Origin: Minisyncoccota bacterium | GTDB taxonomy: Bacteria > Patescibacteriota > Minisyncoccia > Phycocordibacterales > CALRHW01 | Direction of reading: 5' to 3' | Assembly (NCBI GenBank): GCA_046350795.1 | Contig: JAXLZT010000001.1 | Coordinates: forward strand, 2,411 to 66,410 | DNA length: 64,000 nucleotides | Shown here: piece by piece, positions 51,005-57,626 of the stretch | How the letters are laid out: each line of letters starts with the position of its first letter | Numbering within the stretch: position 1 is the first letter of the stretch | Notes under the pieces: generated by a model | Told to the model about the DNA's origin: nothing | The model's input: the letters and a program-made list of their open reading frames with translations, nothing else | Databases searched by the model: none | Made by a program: the position numbers and the translations under genes

Positions 51005-51880
51005 TTACAACCCCCTCTCGGCTTCAATAAACTCATCTAGGTCACCGGCGAGAACACGGTCTATATCTCGCACCTCTACGTCTGTGCGGTGATCCTTTAC
51101 CATTTGATATGGATGCATCACGTATGAGCGGATCTGACTGCCCCACTCATTTGTCGTGGTCTTACTGACATACATCCCCTTTTCTTTGCTTTTTCTATCT
51201 TCTTCTAATTTTTTATATAGTTTGCCTTGCAATACTTTGAGGGCATGCTCACGATTTTGCGCCTGAGAGCGCTCAGAGTCGGCCTGCGTAGCTAGGCCGG
51301 TCGGAATATGCACCACACGTACGGCTGTCTCACGTTTATTTACATTCTGACCTCCAGGACCGCTAGATCTGGAAAATTCAAATCTCAAATCTTCTTCCGG
51401 AATTTTTAAATCATCATGTCTATCAAATTTTGGTATCACTTCTACCATTGAAAAAGAAGTGTGGCGAAGCTGTTTTGAGCTAAATGGAGAAATGCGCACG
51501 AGACGATGCACACCTGATTCATTTTTTAGAGTGCCGTACACATTTTTACCAGATATTTCTATAGTCACATTACGATACCCACCATGATCATTTTCATTTT
51601 TATGCAATGTCGCACAACCCCAACCTTTTTTCTCAATATATTTTAAATACATTTCTAGTAAGATATGGGAAAAATCCTCAGCATCATCTCCGCCGGCGCC
51701 AGAAAAAATAGTCATTATGGCGTCTCCCTTGTCGTATTTCCCTACCCCCTCTAAATCATTTTTTAAATCTCCTAGCTCGCGAACTTTTGCCTGAGCTTTT
51801 TCTTTATCATTCCAAAAATCGGGTGAGGACATTTGTGCTTCAAGCGAAGCAATCTTTTCCAAAATCTCTTCTTTCTTCAT
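51005..51880 (-). CDS. prfB: Peptide chain release factor 2 (short, 291 aa; no programmed frameshift)
   Basis: SPF tripeptide (RISPFSSKQLRHTSF) and GGQ (SGPGGQNVNK). Confidence 0.85.
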   Translation of the reverse strand: MKKEEILEKIASLEAQMSSPDFWNDKEKAQAKVRELGDLKNDLEGVGKYDKGDAIMTIFSGAGGDDAEDFSHILLEMYLKYIEKKGWGCATLHKNENDHGGYRNVTIEISGKNVYGTLKNESGVHRLVRISPFSSKQLRHTSFSMVEVIPKFDRHDDLKIPEEDLRFEFSRSSGPGGQNVNKRETAVRVVHIPTGLATQADSERSQAQNREHALKVLQGKLYKKLEEDRKSKEKGMYVSKTTTNEWGSQIRSYVMHPYQMVKDHRTDVEVRDIDRVLAGDLDEFIEAERGL

Positions 51881-51921
51881 ATTAAAAGTATATCAGGCGA
51901 TTTCGTTTTTTATAAATTAAA

Positions 51922-51957
51922 TGGCCAGGGATCCAACAAGTGGGTCCCTGGCCTTTT
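51922..51957. terminator. Intrinsic terminator hairpin (GGCCAGGGATCC-aacaagt-GGGTCCCTGGCC plus TTTTT)
   Basis: 12-bp stem plus T-tract. Confidence 0.55.
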
Positions 51958-52334
51958 TGCCAGTTACGGGCGTTTCCTTGGGTGACCAAGGGCCGAATGC
52001 GCGGTGCTCTTTAGCGTCCGTGCTCGTGGAGGAGGAAGAGTGGCTTCGAAACACCTATGCACCACAATGCACAGGATCATCGTCGTCTTGTCTTCACTGG
52101 CCTCGACTATCTCCGGTTTTTGCGCCGCCCGACAACTGACAAACCAGGTCTGAAACAGAGCTCCTTGGTAGCTCATGAACCGACCCCTTGGGGTGGCACG
52201 AGGGTTTTGGCCTTGTTGGCCTTGGGCTCGTTTCTTTACTGGATTTGCTCTCTGAAGATGAATATTATACCTCTAATAAAAAAGTGCAAGGGTTTAATTA
52301 TGTGGTTGTGGATTACTAAAAATCACACAATTTC

Positions 52335-52410
52335 TGGAGCCATTGGCCGGGATTGAACCGGCGACCTCGTCATTACCAATGACGTGCTCTACCAACTGAG
52401 CTACAACGGC
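52335..52410 (-). tRNA. tRNA-Thr (anticodon GGT), CCA encoded
   Basis: GCCGTTG acceptor, CGTCA-TTGGTAA-TGACG anticodon arm, GGTTCAATCC T-arm, CCA. Confidence 0.85.
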
Positions 52411-52536
52411 TTATTAGCTAAAGTGCATTACTACCAAGACAGCTACAACGGCTTATTAGCTAAAGTGCATTACTACCAAGACAGCTACAACGGCTTATTA
52501 GCTAAAGTGCATTACTACCAAGACAGCTACAACGGC
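52399..52536. repeat. Tandem direct repeat, 42-bp unit x3.3 (AGCTACAACGGCTTATTAGCTAAAGTGCATTACTACCAAGAC), beginning inside the 5' end of tRNA-Thr(GGT) and extending upstream
   Basis: Three identical units at 52399-52440, 52441-52482, 52483-52524, plus a 12-nt partial; each unit carries the first 12 nt of the tRNA and a TTGGTA...TAATAA promoter-like leader. Confidence 0.85.
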
Positions 52537-52614
52537 GTAAATTAATGATACACAAAGTTTGCAAATCCGCCAAAAATATGGATAATTTTGGGATATACTC
52601 ATTTCAGGAAATAT

Positions 52615-52687
52615 GTCGGGGTAGCTCAGTTGGTAGAGCACAGGACTCATAAGCCTGGGGTCGTGGGTTCGATCCCCACCCTCGACA
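52615..52687 (+). tRNA. tRNA-Met (anticodon CAT; elongator-type or tRNA-Ile2)
   Basis: GTCGGGG acceptor (G1-C72 paired, so not initiator), CTCATAA anticodon loop, GTGGG-TTCGATC-CCCAC T-arm; A31-G39 mismatch noted. Confidence 0.7.
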
Positions 52688-52740
52688 CAAGTTTTGCAAC
52701 ATTGTGCGCAAAACGAAAATTTGTTAGATTATAGCCTATT

Positions 52741-52814
52741 GCGGTCGTAGCTCAACTGGTTAGAGCACTCGCCTGTCACGTGAGAGGTTGAGGGTTCAAG
52801 TCCCTTCGACCGCG
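52741..52814 (+). tRNA. tRNA-Asp (anticodon GTC)
   Basis: GCGGTCG acceptor, CTCGC-CTGTCAC-GTGAG anticodon arm, GAGGGTTCAAGTCCCTT T-arm. Confidence 0.8.
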
Positions 52815-52835
52815 CAGTAAGTATAAAAACAAACC

Positions 52836-52870
52836 AAAAACCGCCCACGAGGGCGGTTTTTGGTTTATAT
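52836..52870 (+). terminator. Intrinsic terminator (AAAAACCGCCC-acga-GGGCGGTTTTT)
   Basis: Hairpin plus T-tract after the tRNA pair. Confidence 0.65.
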
Positions 52871-52925
52871 AGCAAAAGTTTCAGCCACTGCCACTAAGAT
52901 AATTCCGAACATCTTTTTATACTTG

Positions 52926-52996
52926 TTGCGGGAGCTGGAATTGCACCAACGCCTGGAGGTTATGAGCCTCCCGAGATACTACTTCTCTATCCCGCG
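52926..52996 (-). ncRNA. Degenerate tRNA-like element with CAU anticodon loop (possible tRNA pseudogene or tRNA-like RNA)
   Basis: rc reads CGCGGGA-TA-GAGA-AGTAGTA-TCTC-G-GGAGG-CTCATAA-CCTCC-AGGC-GTTGG-TGCAATT-CCAGC-TCCCGCA-A; canonical anticodon arm, C1/A72 mismatch, no G18G19, G at position 55. Confidence 0.35.
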
Positions 52997-53043
52997 ATTA
53001 GGTTTTTATAGTATCACAAAATATCAAAATAACAAGAGGAATA

Positions 53044-53067
53044 GGCGCGCGGCGGACGCCGCGCGCC
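53044..53067 (-). terminator. GC hairpin (GGCGCGCGGC-ggac-GCCGCGCGCC) downstream of the HEPN gene
   Basis: 10-bp stem directly after the stop of the 53072..53779 gene. Confidence 0.5.
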
Positions 53068-53071
53068 ACCT

Positions 53072-53779
53072 TTATATATACTTAAACTCCTCAAAAACAG
53101 ACTTATATAAAGCGATTACACGTCTTGCCTCTCGCTCATTTAGTTCAAAATTGGCACCTTCATGGGCGATCATATTTCTTACCTTATGCGCCTCCCAAGC
53201 ATTGTTGAGAGTATTGAAATCACTTACTTCTATTCCCTTTAGTCTCTCACCCAAGTTGTCACCATGATAACCCATACTTTTTGTCATTTCATCCAAAATA
53301 CTATCTGATTCAATGATCGCTATCTTCCAATCATTTGGATTTGTGGACTCTATATGCTCCAACACACGCTCCCATCTTTTATTTTGCACAGAAACTGGTG
53401 TAGACATCACGCTAGCATTTGAATCTTTTGATTCTGTGATAGCCCCTGCTGGTTTTGCATATTTTGCTTTTATCTGTTTCGAAAGTTTGGACATCTTTCT
53501 GTATACAGAAACTATCATGTACACAAGAAACACTGATACAAAGAAAGAAATAATTTTAAATATCGGTAATGTGCGCCAAAACCATTTTGACAAATGTTCA
53601 AACCAACCAGAATCATCTAAAGGATTGCTACTCTGCAAAAATCCAAAGAAATTGAGCACAGCATAGCTAAGTAAGGCAATCAAAACACCCGCGATAACAA
53701 GAAACTCCCACACATTTGAGGCGCCAAGTGGACCAGCATCTGAAGGAGCTGATTTTTTATCTTTTTTATCGTCTGCCAT
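53072..53779 (-). CDS. Membrane-anchored protein with C-terminal HEPN-like (DUF4145-type) domain
   Basis: Two N-terminal TM helices; C-terminal helical domain with KVRNMIAHEG (Rx4H HEPN motif, the DUF4145 signature RN-AAH). Confidence 0.55.
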   Translation of the reverse strand: MADDKKDKKSAPSDAGPLGASNVWEFLVIAGVLIALLSYAVLNFFGFLQSSNPLDDSGWFEHLSKWFWRTLPIFKIISFFVSVFLVYMIVSVYRKMSKLSKQIKAKYAKPAGAITESKDSNASVMSTPVSVQNKRWERVLEHIESTNPNDWKIAIIESDSILDEMTKSMGYHGDNLGERLKGIEVSDFNTLNNAWEAHKVRNMIAHEGANFELNEREARRVIALYKSVFEEFKYI

Positions 53780-53801: not shown

Positions 53802-55241
53802 CTACTCATTCAAAAATTCTTTTCCCACAGCAAACAAAATATCTTCGCGACACTCGGCTGACATAAACTGTAAGCCTAGTGGTAAATCTACTCCGTCTTT
53901 TTTTACAAAACCAGAAGGTACGGAAAGCGCGGGAATTCTCGCTATGTTTGCTGGCACAGTAAAAATATCCGCTAAATACATTTCGACTGGATTATCTTTC
54001 TTTTCTCCAAGCTTAAAAGCTGGTGTAGGAGTCGTAGGTGTAATGATCACATCTACTTTTTCAAAAGCTTTTGTAAAATCATCAATGATGAGCTTGCGGG
54101 CATTTTGTGCTTTATTGTAATACGCATCATAGTAGCCAGATGAAAGTACGTGTGTACCGACCAATATACGTCGACGCACCTCTTTCCCAAATCCTTTTCC
54201 ACGAGTTTTTTTGTAATCTTCTAGCAAGTTTTTTCCATCAACATGTAGACCAAACTTTACCCCATCAAAACGTGCCAGGTTTGAAGACACTTCTCCCGGC
54301 ATAATGATGTAATACGCGGGTAAGGAATATTTTATATGTGGCAATTCAATATCTTTTATTTCATAGCCAAGCGATTCAAGTTTTTTTATTGATTGATCAA
54401 AATTGGCACGAACTTCTGGATCTAAGCCATCTATATACACCATATCGCGAGGCACACCAATAACAGGCTTTTTTGACTTCAAAGGCTGTGCCTGCATTTT
54501 TTTATACAAATCATTGGGCAGAGTCGTACTATCAAAAGCATCATGTCCACGAATTGTATTAAATAAAATTTCTGCGTCAGTCACGCTGCGAGTAATAGGA
54601 CCTATTTGATCAAGAGACGAGCCCATAGCCATAAGGCCGTAGCGAGATACACTGCCATATGTCGTCTTTAGTCCAACAACACCACAAAAACTTGCAGGCT
54701 GACGCACAGAACCCGCCGTATCAGAGCCCAAAGATGCAAGGGCGCCATGCATAGCGACAGATGCAGCTGCGCCACCAGAAGATCCACCCGGCACCCTACT
54801 CTCATCGAGCGGGTTGCGAGTCACACCATATGCAGAAGTCTCAGTCGAGCTACCCATAGCAAACTCATCCATGTTTGTGCGACCAAGAAAAACAACACCG
54901 GCTTCTTTTAAACGAGTCGCAACAGTAGAATCATATGTCGCAGTGTAGTTTTCAAGTATTTTTGATGATGCACTCGCCTTTTTCCCTTTTACTAAAATAT
55001 TGTCTTTGAGAGCAAGAGGAATACCCGCAAGCACACTGTCTGTACCTGCATCTATCATCTTTTGAGCTTCTTCTATTTGCTCATCCAGATCATCGTAAAG
55101 CTCGAGGTATGCGTGCACTGTCTTGTCACGTTTTTCTATCTCATCTAAATACGCCTGACAAAGTTCGCGCACCGAAAAATCTTTTTTTATAAGATGATCG
55201 TGTGCTTTGGCGATAGTCATTTTATCCAAATCAATTTTCAT
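53802..55241 (-). CDS. gatA: Glutamyl-tRNA(Gln) amidotransferase subunit A
   Basis: Amidase signature GGSSGGAAASVA. Confidence 0.9.
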   Translation of the reverse strand: MKIDLDKMTIAKAHDHLIKKDFSVRELCQAYLDEIEKRDKTVHAYLELYDDLDEQIEEAQKMIDAGTDSVLAGIPLALKDNILVKGKKASASSKILENYTATYDSTVATRLKEAGVVFLGRTNMDEFAMGSSTETSAYGVTRNPLDESRVPGGSSGGAAASVAMHGALASLGSDTAGSVRQPASFCGVVGLKTTYGSVSRYGLMAMGSSLDQIGPITRSVTDAEILFNTIRGHDAFDSTTLPNDLYKKMQAQPLKSKKPVIGVPRDMVYIDGLDPEVRANFDQSIKKLESLGYEIKDIELPHIKYSLPAYYIIMPGEVSSNLARFDGVKFGLHVDGKNLLEDYKKTRGKGFGKEVRRRILVGTHVLSSGYYDAYYNKAQNARKLIIDDFTKAFEKVDVIITPTTPTPAFKLGEKKDNPVEMYLADIFTVPANIARIPALSVPSGFVKKDGVDLPLGLQFMSAECREDILFAVGKEFLNE

Positions 55242-55261: not shown

Positions 55262-55552
55262 TTACAGAATTTTCTTTACTTTCAAATAATCACCTTCTCG
55301 ATCAGGCATTTCAGCCAAAATCTCCTCCGTAAAAGCACCTGTCTCGTGCGGAGTATGATCCTCTCGCATCACATTATTTACTAGCGCATCATCGCTTTTC
55401 TCAATTTTTTCTGTCTTGATATTGGCATCTTCTATCTGACCAACGTATTTCAGAATATTTTCTAAATCCTTTTGAAAACCAGCCTTTTCCTCCTCCGGTA
55501 TCTCTAGGCGAGCCAAATCTGCCAGCTTTTCTATATCTTTTATTTCAATCAT
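55262..55552 (-). CDS. gatC: Glutamyl-tRNA(Gln) amidotransferase subunit C
   Basis: MIEIKDIEKLADLARLEIPEEEKAGF; start set at the internal Met to avoid overlap with ligA. Confidence 0.75.
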   Translation of the reverse strand: MIEIKDIEKLADLARLEIPEEEKAGFQKDLENILKYVGQIEDANIKTEKIEKSDDALVNNVMREDHTPHETGAFTEEILAEMPDREGDYLKVKKIL

Positions 55553-55556
55553 GTTC

Positions 55557-57626
<2,070 letters not shown>

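Follow-up and report, generated by a model that had tools for sequence, protein, structure and literature searches.

Within the window, by which we mean the whole 64-kb stretch of DNA that was analysed, a gene for a small membrane-anchored protein with a HEPN-type domain follows ligA, gatC and gatA and adjoins a cluster of tRNA genes (Table 1). This gene, referred to here as 2TM-HEPN, is a vertically inherited core gene of Paceibacteria and no toxin, and the neighbouring CAU tRNA with its odd D- and T-loops is, by its sequence features, a genuine initiator tRNA of the lineage. On balance we lean towards the explanation that the locus is a housekeeping block with an ordinary initiator tRNA and a membrane-tethered HEPN endoribonuclease, and that their adjacency reflects frozen synteny. 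A first-pass annotation of this DNA had likewise described a membrane anchor joined to a HEPN-type domain at the C-terminus with its Rx4H motif, which our analysis supports, and had raised a possible toxin role for the protein and a possible decoy role for the tRNA-like element beside it, neither of which held up. The 2TM-HEPN family, the A18-G55 elbow and the self-copying tRNA leaders described below are absent from the databases and literature searched; a literature search found nothing relevant on HEPN proteins in Patescibacteria, on an A18/G55 elbow, on initiator tRNA in CPR or on tRNA leader mimics.

Table 1. Features of the 2TM-HEPN locus, in window coordinates.
Feature	Position	Strand	Basis and remarks
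tRNA-Thr (GGT)	52335..52410	-	
tRNA-Thr 5'-leader tandem repeat	52399..52536	-	3.3 x 42 nt, 100% identical, TRF score 276
Elongator-type tRNA, CAU	52615..52688	+	Met-CAT call; Met, or Ile2 after lysidine modification
tRNA-Asp (GTC)	52741..52815	+	ARAGORN/Rfam searches
Bidirectional terminator-like hairpin	52829..52868	.	Between tRNA-fMet (-) and tRNA-Asp (+)
Initiator tRNA-fMet (CAU)	52925..52996	-	C1xA72, A11:U24, A18/G55 elbow variant
Terminator-like hairpin	53044..53067	-	10 G-C pairs, 5 nt past the HEPN stop, then a T-rich tail
2TM-HEPN gene, 235 aa	53072..53779	-	Stop codon included; ORF list; 100% match to P0001
C-terminal HEPN-type helical domain, residues 134-231	53087..53380	-	AlphaFold2, Foldseek, Pfam
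R-N-M-I-A-H (Rx4H motif), residues 201-206	53162..53179	-	Read from the sequence
Predicted membrane helix 2, ~residues 70-93 in helix 59-107	53501..53572	-	AlphaFold2
Predicted membrane helix 1, residues 23-50	53630..53713	-	Full-length AlphaFold2; hydrophobic VWEFLVIAGVLIALLSYAVLNFFGFL
gatA	53802..55241	-	22 nt upstream of the HEPN gene, same strand
gatC	55262-55591	-	Upstream of gatA; Pfam families in L001
ligA	55557-57596	-	Precedes gatC; Pfam families in L001

The 2TM-HEPN protein

NCBI lists the same 235-aa sequence, residue for residue, as a "hypothetical protein" from a Candidatus Paceibacterota MAG. Its full-length AlphaFold2 model consists of helices 23-50 and 59-107, a disordered stretch 108-133 and a C-domain 134-231, and the two long hydrophobic helices agree with the two N-terminal membrane helices of the first-pass annotation. 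A Lys/Arg-rich juxtamembrane stretch, YRKMSKLSKQIKAKYAKP, directly follows the second hydrophobic segment, and under the positive-inside rule its charge would place the C-domain on the cytoplasmic side. In longer homologues (378-696 aa), SH3_3-like repeats lie between the two membrane helices; a GatA-HEPN fusion was considered as the origin of these long forms and rejected, since the extra length consists of the SH3-like repeats.

The C-domain is predicted to be an all-alpha four-helix up-and-down bundle (AlphaFold2 model of the domain, mean pLDDT 91.3, predicted helices 12-24, 29-49, 72-91 and 96-112 plus one short helix). It contains the annotated KVRNMIAHEG segment, in which R201, N202, A205 and H206 are invariant across alignments of 30, 120 and 47 homologues, and the wider invariant pattern among homologues reads W-E-A-H-K-x-R-N-x-x-A-H. 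None of the HEPN models of Pfam matched the window protein itself. HEPN_Swt1 (PF18731) was matched by 13 of 30 homologues, all under the gathering cut-off, with a best match of E = 1.1e-5 over profile positions 19-110 of 115; the top HEPN score among the homologues was 26.1 bits against a curated cut-off of 27.5. The other sub-threshold matches of homologues were to RiboL-PSP-HEPN, Hypoth_Ymh and DUF4145, all of which we take, from their names and general knowledge, to be HEPN-type models. DUF4145 (PF13643) was reached by a single homologue out of 30 (E = 0.022, 15.2 bits against a cut-off of 23.1) and not by the query. The earlier label of a DUF4145-like HEPN domain is imprecise, the best of the matches, all sub-threshold, being to Swt1.

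Structure comparison points in the same direction: the best Foldseek PDB matches of the C-domain are the HEPN proteins 1wty, 2hsb (probability 0.96), 1wol and 2q00, a result weakened by E values of 0.1 or worse and by the promiscuity with which four-helix bundles match. PDB sequence profile searches with full-length and C-domain alignments returned only designed helical or unrelated proteins and no solved structure of a sequence relative, and NCBIfam, PADLOC and PHROG scans of the 235-aa protein gave no meaningful match. A helical domain of ~100 aa, with R-N-x-x-A-H near the C-terminal half of the domain, is common to the protein and the Swt1-like HEPN family. In eukaryotes Swt1 is a soluble protein that combines its HEPN domain with a PIN nuclease domain, whereas the HEPN-type domain here is coupled to a two-helix membrane anchor and occurs in Patescibacteria. 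DUF4145 proteins have an RN..AH-type motif in common with it, and differ in that the 2TM-HEPN gene sits in a housekeeping operon and not in a restriction or abortive-infection island.

Conservation of the locus

The family is very large. A word-indexed search recovered 437 homologues at E <= 1e-3, and 2929 representatives of 50%-identity clusters were found at the same threshold; the family occurs in at least 587 species genomes, and its named matches come from Patescibacteria only. The identity of ligA, gatC and gatA was taken from the ORF list and the Pfam families of genes called in an independent contig, L001. In all 75 loci compared gatA lies near the 2TM-HEPN gene, upstream on the same strand in 74 and inverted in one. 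The gap between the two genes is below 300 nt in 63 of the 75, a count that underestimates adjacency because many matches begin inside the protein. The conserved gatC-gatA-HEPN block includes ligA, and at one locus, L042, the HEPN gene stands directly between gatA and gatB; a motif scan of the 64-kb window did not find gatB. Of 73 loci, 42 have the initiator tRNA on the same strand within 300 nt of the HEPN gene, and 59 have it within 1.5 kb. No CRISPR context was seen at the loci examined, and no antitoxin-like partner was found beside the gene, its neighbours being gatA and tRNA in nearly all loci. The breadth of the family, its fixed gatC-gatA synteny and the absence of an antitoxin or of a PADLOC or PHROG match all speak against the toxin or abortive-infection role proposed initially.

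The initiator tRNA and its elbow

ARAGORN calls the CAU element a tRNA-Met(cat), and in a search of the 64 kb it scored 54.8 bits (E = 4.9e-9) with the Rfam tRNA model RF00005, whose gathering score is 29. Both results are at odds with its description as degenerate and tRNA-like. All four stems are intact. The aberrant loops that had suggested this description are real: the D-loop, AGUAGUA, lacks GG, and the T-loop, UGCAAUU, has G55, both departing from the tRNA consensus.

Initiator tRNA of E. coli is marked by CAU, C1xA72, A73, A11:U24, G-C pairs in the anticodon stem and the acceptor stem CGCGGG.../...CCCGCA. The window tRNA shares the anticodon, the acceptor stem with its C1xA72 (marked non-canonical in the cmscan alignment), A73, A11:U24 within a GAGA/UCUC D stem and the G-C pairs 30:40 and 31:39. 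It differs in having A-U at 29:41, as do most of its orthologues, and so two rather than three consecutive G-C pairs, in A18 and G55, and in the lack of an encoded CCA. Our survey, which covered 64 kb of the source genome and 10-16 kb of each related genome, found orthologues at the same syntenic site in 67 related genomes. Among the resulting 68 initiators position 1 is C, A or U against A or U at position 72, mostly mismatched, and A11:U24, with A at the second position of the D-stem 5' strand, is present in nearly all. G30G31/C39C40 occurs in 68 of 68, a figure built into the set by its selection on the anticodon-stem sequence ggctcataacc.

The elbow exists in two states in these 68 genes: A18G19/G55C56 in 44 and G18G19/U55C56 in 24, with no discordant case (Fisher p = 6.7e-19 for 18/55 covariation, not corrected for phylogeny). 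The canonical G18/U55 initiator thus occupies the same syntenic site in one third of the genomes, and A18/G55 was also found in five elongator tRNA-Met genes. We read the odd loops as a compensated, alternative elbow pair in which A18-G55 replaces G18-Psi55. Both G18 and U55/Psi55 have been termed universally conserved in tRNA (review, PMC7912444). To count independent switches, a neighbour-joining tree built from the HEPN C-domain was analysed by parsimony; the 17 changes, against 22.9 in shuffled data, were uninformative, as this tree is too weak. With A18-G55 initiators in two thirds of the genomes, the group lends itself as a natural test case both for the architecture of the tRNA elbow and for enzymes that read it, such as TruB, TrmH and RNase P.

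The labels pseudogene and decoy do not fit this CAU tRNA: with intact stems, orthologues in 67 genomes and perfect 18/55 covariation it is, as far as its sequence tells, a working tRNA. The first-pass annotation had tied its decoy reading to HEPN profile matches and to conservation of the element. The profile matches are weak, and conservation is clear, yet it is the syntenic conservation of an initiator tRNA with a compensating A18/G55 change that led us to drop the idea of a decoy or substrate mimic.

Interpretation of the locus

The block ligA, gatC, gatA, 2TM-HEPN, tRNA-fMet, tRNA-Met, tRNA-Asp, tRNA-Thr would be a frozen arrangement of Paceibacteria (Patescibacteria/CPR), with 2TM-HEPN as the presumed last gene of a ligA-gatCA operon. 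Its product may sit in the inner membrane, with its N- and C-termini on the cytoplasmic side, a short outside loop between the membrane helices that is expanded by SH3-like repeats in homologues, and a disordered linker leading to the cytoplasmic HEPN domain. It would act as a metal-independent endoribonuclease, its active site formed by face-to-face pairing of HEPN domains as in other HEPN RNases, and could serve RNA turnover or processing as a membrane-tethered RNase that is constitutive or modulated by envelope signals. Topology, dimerisation, nuclease activity, substrates and physiological role are all conjectural here. By analogy the protein resembles RNase Y, a general RNase anchored to the membrane, and RNase E, which is likewise membrane-tethered. 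If active, it would be a candidate housekeeping RNase of reduced-genome organisms that cannot be grown alone. The family as a whole, found in very many Paceibacteria and without annotation, combines a canonical HEPN motif with a membrane anchor in a translation-related operon.

The KEN domain of Ire1 and RNase L is a HEPN-type RNase activated by dimerisation, and Ire1 has its sensor across the membrane. An essential core sensor of this kind, in which the loop between the membrane helices, with up to about seven SH3-like repeats in homologues, senses the outside and the HEPN domains then pair and cut transcripts of the tRNA cluster or others, perhaps the self-mimicking leaders among them, seems to us very doubtful. 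The far-side sensor and cytoplasmic HEPN-type RNase of Ire1 find a counterpart in the homologues with an SH3-like outside loop, but 2TM-HEPN lacks a kinase domain as well as KH or HD domains, and the likeness is one of analogy only.

Among the alternatives to the preferred housekeeping reading, a toxin or abortive-infection anticodon nuclease, with the adjacent CAU element as decoy, substrate mimic or repair partner, is in our view extremely improbable. PrrC and RloC are HEPN nucleases that cut tRNA anticodon loops, and both the HEPN motif and the proximity to CAU tRNAs in most genomes would suit such a role. What speaks against it is that the tRNA scores high, shows initiator identity features and has a compensated elbow, that the canonical form occupies the same site in one third of genomes, that the HEPN gene is a core gene whose housekeeping synteny is fixed and beside which no antitoxin-like gene lies, that PADLOC and PHROG scans gave no match, and that a terminator-like hairpin stands between gene and tRNA. 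An unlikely but more serious alternative is that the C-domain is a non-catalytic HEPN-like bundle and the protein a membrane scaffold, pore or RNA/nucleotide-binding anchor. Its model is Csx28, the accessory protein of type VI-B CRISPR-Cas13b, which combines an N-terminal membrane helix with a four-helix HEPN-like fold and forms an octameric pore in which the motif arginine faces away from the interface. Both membrane proteins are small, have a membrane helix at the N-terminus and hold a four-helix HEPN-like bundle in the cytoplasm, and the HEPN profile matches of our family are all sub-threshold. Csx28, however, has a motif described as divergent, is activated as a pore by Cas13b and is CRISPR-linked and sporadic, whereas 2TM-HEPN has two membrane helices, lineage-wide conservation, no CRISPR context and a canonical motif whose R, N and H are invariant over at least 120 diverse homologues, as would be expected of a retained active site. 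The 50 best Foldseek PDB matches did not include Csx28.

The close association with gatCA and with the tRNA genes, which we treat as synteny, could instead reflect a tRNA-specific function. The enzyme would then either cleave RNAs transcribed from the neighbouring tRNA cluster, self-mimic leaders included, or serve as a quality-control factor for misacylated tRNA upstream of GatCAB. The co-oriented position just downstream of gatA, its place between gatA and gatB in L042, the gatCA linkage at 75 of 75 loci, the tRNA-cluster linkage at 59 of 73 and the unusual leader modules on tRNAs of the lineage are all compatible with this. Where gene order is conserved, however, such linkage is indistinguishable from frozen synteny; ligA, which has no tRNA role, belongs to the same block, the leader module is confined to a small share of tRNA genes, and a membrane anchor has no obvious use in such a function, so that we consider a dedicated tRNA enzyme quite unlikely.

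Transcription signals and tRNA leader repeats

The tRNA cluster noted initially was found in full, with Thr-GGT (-), Met-CAT (+), Asp-GTC (+) and Met-CAT (-). The strong terminator-like hairpin that would separate the HEPN gene from tRNA-fMet argues against their co-transcription, and a weak candidate promoter lies just upstream of the tRNA. Weak Rfam matches also took up the bidirectional hairpin on the other side of the tRNA as a terminator stem. Searches of a GC-rich region at 51915-52250 gave no Rfam match even at E <= 10, no intron-containing tRNA with ARAGORN and no similarity in 82 related loci.

The tandem tRNA-leader repeats pointed out before were recovered as perfect copies, each 42-nt unit consisting of the first 12 nt of tRNA-Thr, GCCGTTGTAGCT, followed by GTCTTGGTAG. 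Explanations of the units as sigma-70 promoters (hexamer spacings misfit by eye, and a consensus scan gave no promoter inside the units), of a stable fold formed by leader and tRNA-Thr together (z = -0.3) and of pairing between the mimic and the leader 3' end (which on inspection fits locus L099 and fails at others) were rejected. The repeats belong to a recurrent module, in which tRNA leaders copy the 5' end of their own tRNA: it recurs at other loci, also in tandem arrays, and was seen in ~5% of the surveyed tRNA genes. It may represent a novel element for processing or regulation, or else a mutational signature specific to the lineage. In at least nine tRNA species the leader copy follows the acceptor sequence of the tRNA concerned. 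By coordinate arithmetic, contig L001 ends inside the leader array.

Organization of the HEPN locus

The first-pass annotation had described this locus as a membrane-anchored, DUF4145-like HEPN protein beside a degenerate tRNA(CAU)-like element and tandem tRNA-leader repeats, pointing to toxin RNases among HEPN domains and calling a decoy conceivable. That observation proved largely real, while its reading held in part for the domain and failed for decoy and toxin. The window derives from a genome of Candidatus Paceibacterota (Patescibacteria/CPR). A hypothetical protein that NCBI lists for such a MAG is identical to the 235-aa product of the HEPN gene, and on the minus strand its ORF follows ligA, gatC and gatA, with a gap of 22 nt to gatA. 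Co-transcription with the downstream CAU tRNA is doubtful in the window, since a terminator-like hairpin follows the HEPN gene and the tRNA has a weak candidate promoter of its own, an extended -10 site (TTGTTA, 16 nt, TG-A-TACTAT) found by eye and under the threshold of the consensus scan.

Features around the HEPN gene in the window
Feature	Position	Strand	Remark
ligA	55557-57596	-	
gatA	53802-55241	-	
HEPN gene (235-aa ORF)	53072-53779	-	
G-C hairpin with T-rich tail, terminator-like	53044-53067	-	downstream of HEPN gene
CAU tRNA	52925-52996	-	downstream of 53044-53067 hairpin
Terminator-like hairpin, bidirectional	52829-52868		downstream of CAU tRNA
tRNA-Asp and second CAU tRNA		+	
Leader module (tandem repeat)	52399-52536	-	
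tRNA-Thr(GGT)		-	behind tandem repeat
GC-rich stretch	51915-52250		between tRNA-Thr(GGT) and prfB
Release factor 2-like ORF	51005-51880	-	SPF motif

An initiator tRNA with an unusual elbow

The CAU element downstream of the HEPN gene was called tRNA-Met(CAT) by ARAGORN and scored 54.8 bits (gathering score 29; E = 4.9e-9) when the whole window was searched with the Rfam tRNA model, in whose alignment all four stems are intact. Hallmarks of the E. coli initiator tRNA-fMet are an unpaired 1:72, A11:U24 and G-C pairs adjoining the anticodon loop. The window tRNA has a non-canonical C1xA72 with discriminator A73, a D stem GAGA/UCUC (A11:U24) and an anticodon stem GGAGG/CCUCC, in which 29:41 is A-U, leaving two G-C pairs out of three. 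The aberrant loops noted at first pass are genuine: the D-loop AGUAGUA has A18 G19 instead of G18 G19, and the T-loop UGCAAUU has G55 instead of U55.

An initiator-type CAU tRNA was found in 67 of the 80 related loci kept, mostly directly after the HEPN gene, giving with the window copy 68 sequences (63 distinct) from the window and loci L003-L082. In these Paceibacteria initiators, D-loops with ..AGUA (A18G19) occur exactly with T-loops UGC... (G55C56) in 44 of them, window included, and ..GGUA (G18G19) exactly with UUC... (U55C56) in the other 24; discordant 18/55 combinations are absent (0/68; Fisher p = 6.7e-19, relatedness ignored). The A18/G55 combination also appears in five elongator tRNA-Met genes (L013, L020, L037, L052, L074), with D-loop AGGUAGUUA and T-loop UGCAA.U. 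According to a review (PMC7912444), G18 and U55/Psi55 meet at the tRNA elbow and are universally conserved; our literature search found no mention of A18 together with G55. From the high score, intact stems, initiator features, conservation and loop covariation in the loci compared we conclude that the supposedly degenerate element is neither a pseudogene nor a decoy; judged by its sequence, it works as an initiator tRNA whose elbow pair is an alternative one. Several elongator tRNA-Met and tRNA-Thr genes (L027, L033, L041, L047, L051, L056, L066) depart from the conserved U55 in a different way, combining a T-loop UCCGAUU (C55) with a normal G18G19 D-loop.

A membrane-anchored HEPN family in a housekeeping context

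In the AlphaFold2 model of the full-length HEPN protein (mean pLDDT 81.5), helices span residues 23-50 and 59-107, residues 108-133 form a disordered linker, and residues 134-231 fold into a compact helical domain, which modelled alone reaches a pLDDT of 91.3. This C-domain carries the motif W-E-A-H-K-x-R-N-x-x-A-H, whose R, N, A and H are invariant in every alignment made. The window protein matched no Pfam HEPN model; HEPN_Swt1 was matched over nearly its whole length by 13 of 30 homologues (best E = 1.1e-5, with 26.1 bits where the cut-off is 27.5), and RiboL-PSP-HEPN, Hypoth_Ymh or DUF4145 by a few. The top Foldseek PDB matches were the HEPN proteins 1wty, 2hsb, 1wol and 2q00, at E-values of 0.1 or worse and with cytochrome b562-like bundles close behind. 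On the combination of motif, predicted fold and consistent weak profile matches we accept the C-domain as HEPN-type. The membrane anchor, with its two hydrophobic helices, and the motif likewise stand; DUF4145 as the specific family we reject.

A Lys/Arg-rich stretch follows the second hydrophobic segment, and long homologues (378-696 aa; P0156, P0177, P0142, P0174, P0145) carry 2 to about 7 SH3_3/Tudor-like repeats (consensus ...GPxYxxGxRYWYVDFxSGPDGWV...) between the membrane helices; the inter-helix loop is therefore predicted to lie outside the cell and the C-domain inside. The repeats suggest an extracytoplasmic binding or sensing module.

Relatives occur in at least 587 genomes (scan of one genome per species), and the C-domain profile matched 2929 50%-identity cluster representatives at E <= 1e-3; in all of the 150 matches listed the domain sits at the C-terminus, and the source names seen among relatives are all Patescibacteria groups. 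gatA adjoins the HEPN gene in all 75 loci with enough upstream sequence (same strand and upstream in 74), with gatC upstream in 73 and ligA in 64. In the related locus L042 (about 5560 onward), gatB (KYRTTVGLEIHAELK...) directly follows, placing the HEPN gene inside gatCAB there (gatC-gatA-HEPN-gatB); no gatB motif was found near it in the window and 78 other loci. Of 73 loci, 42 have the initiator tRNA downstream on the same strand at a distance of up to 300 nt and 10 have it on the opposite strand at up to 500 nt; in 59 it is no more than 1.5 kb away. In L038, only the HEPN gene is flipped, while gatA and the tRNA cluster are arranged as usual.

The HEPN gene was not associated with any antitoxin-like gene, defence-system model or phage family, and this, together with its distribution and conserved neighbours, does not fit a mobile toxin. 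It fits a core gene that is inherited vertically within a housekeeping block of frozen order, and the family appears to form a new branch of the HEPN superfamily that is very large and membrane-anchored.

What the analysis shows is the anatomy of the protein and its conservation. We infer that it would be a cytoplasm-facing, membrane-tethered HEPN endoribonuclease, acting as a dimer and expressed together with gatCA, with a putative part in the turnover or processing of RNA; where homologues have ectodomains, signals from outside the cell would perhaps modulate it. The chief alternative is that the HEPN-like membrane protein is non-catalytic, for which Csx28, a membrane helix with a HEPN-like bundle that works as a pore, provides a precedent. 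A tRNA-dedicated role is possible and would suit its neighbours, but it cannot be told apart from synteny. Nothing here is categorically new; the HEPN branch, the initiator tRNA with its covarying non-canonical elbow pair and the leader module are each unannotated and testable.

Repeated tRNA 5' ends in tRNA leaders

The tandem tRNA-leader repeats reported at first pass lie upstream of tRNA-Thr and proved to be 3.3 perfect copies of a 42-nt unit, each opening, on the tRNA-Thr strand, with the first 12 nt of tRNA-Thr, GCCGTTGTAGCT, and continuing with GTCTTGGTAG where the tRNA itself has CAGTTGGTAG. A promoter-like site (TTGGCG, 17 nt, TATCAT) stops 8 nt short of the first unit, and by coordinate arithmetic the independent assembly L001 terminates within the array. 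The predicted structure of leader plus tRNA-Thr is not significant (z = -0.3); its minimum-energy fold has the first unit compete for the 3' acceptor strand of tRNA-Thr.

Of 196 tRNA genes in related loci, 9 are preceded within 200 nt by a copy of their own 5' 12-mer (11 or more of 12 bases), compared with none in the controls (downstream, 0/186; reverse complement, 0/196; the tRNA's own 3' 12-mer, 0/196); a more sensitive scan raised the frequency hardly above 5%. These cases include tRNA-Met, Asp and fMet, with tandem arrays in L047, L076 and L082 and one diverged unit upstream of tRNA-Thr in L005. Besides the window, the module was located in L005, L008, L018, L024, L040, L041, L047, L049, L066, L076 and L082 and in metagenome loci among L086-L203, with one to three units per leader and tandem periods of 37 to 73 nt. 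Each unit carries the tRNA's acceptor 5' strand and UAGCU, then GUY replacing C13-A14-G15, then UUGGUAG, and its acceptor part varies in step with the tRNA that follows (Thr, Phe, Lys, Ala, Met, Asp, fMet). A metagenome scan yielded 127 occurrences of GTAGCTGTYTTGGTAG, 28 of them 37-146 nt upstream of a same-strand tRNA, namely Thr (three anticodons), Phe, Lys (two anticodons) or Ala; in 21 of these 28, the 7 nt preceding TAGC equal that tRNA's acceptor 5' strand. Transcription of the module is probable, as inspection of several loci revealed -10-like boxes 22-27 nt ahead of the first unit. The module may have arisen repeatedly as a by-product of partial duplication, or it may act in cis when the pre-tRNA folds or is processed; no link to the HEPN gene was demonstrable.

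A GC-rich stretch upstream of prfB

The stretch between tRNA-Thr(GGT) and prfB has 52-56% G+C (about 40% around it), folds far better than shuffled sequences (minus strand, z = -6.0; plus strand, z = -4.5) and terminates in a 13-bp hairpin. It takes the place of the relatives' tRNA-Thr(CGT), which the window lacks there; searches for Rfam families, intron-containing tRNAs and similar sequences in related loci were all negative. Candidates for the stretch are a prfB leader and a structured RNA of unknown kind. The release factor 2-like ORF is only 291 aa long and lacks the usual N-terminal segment.
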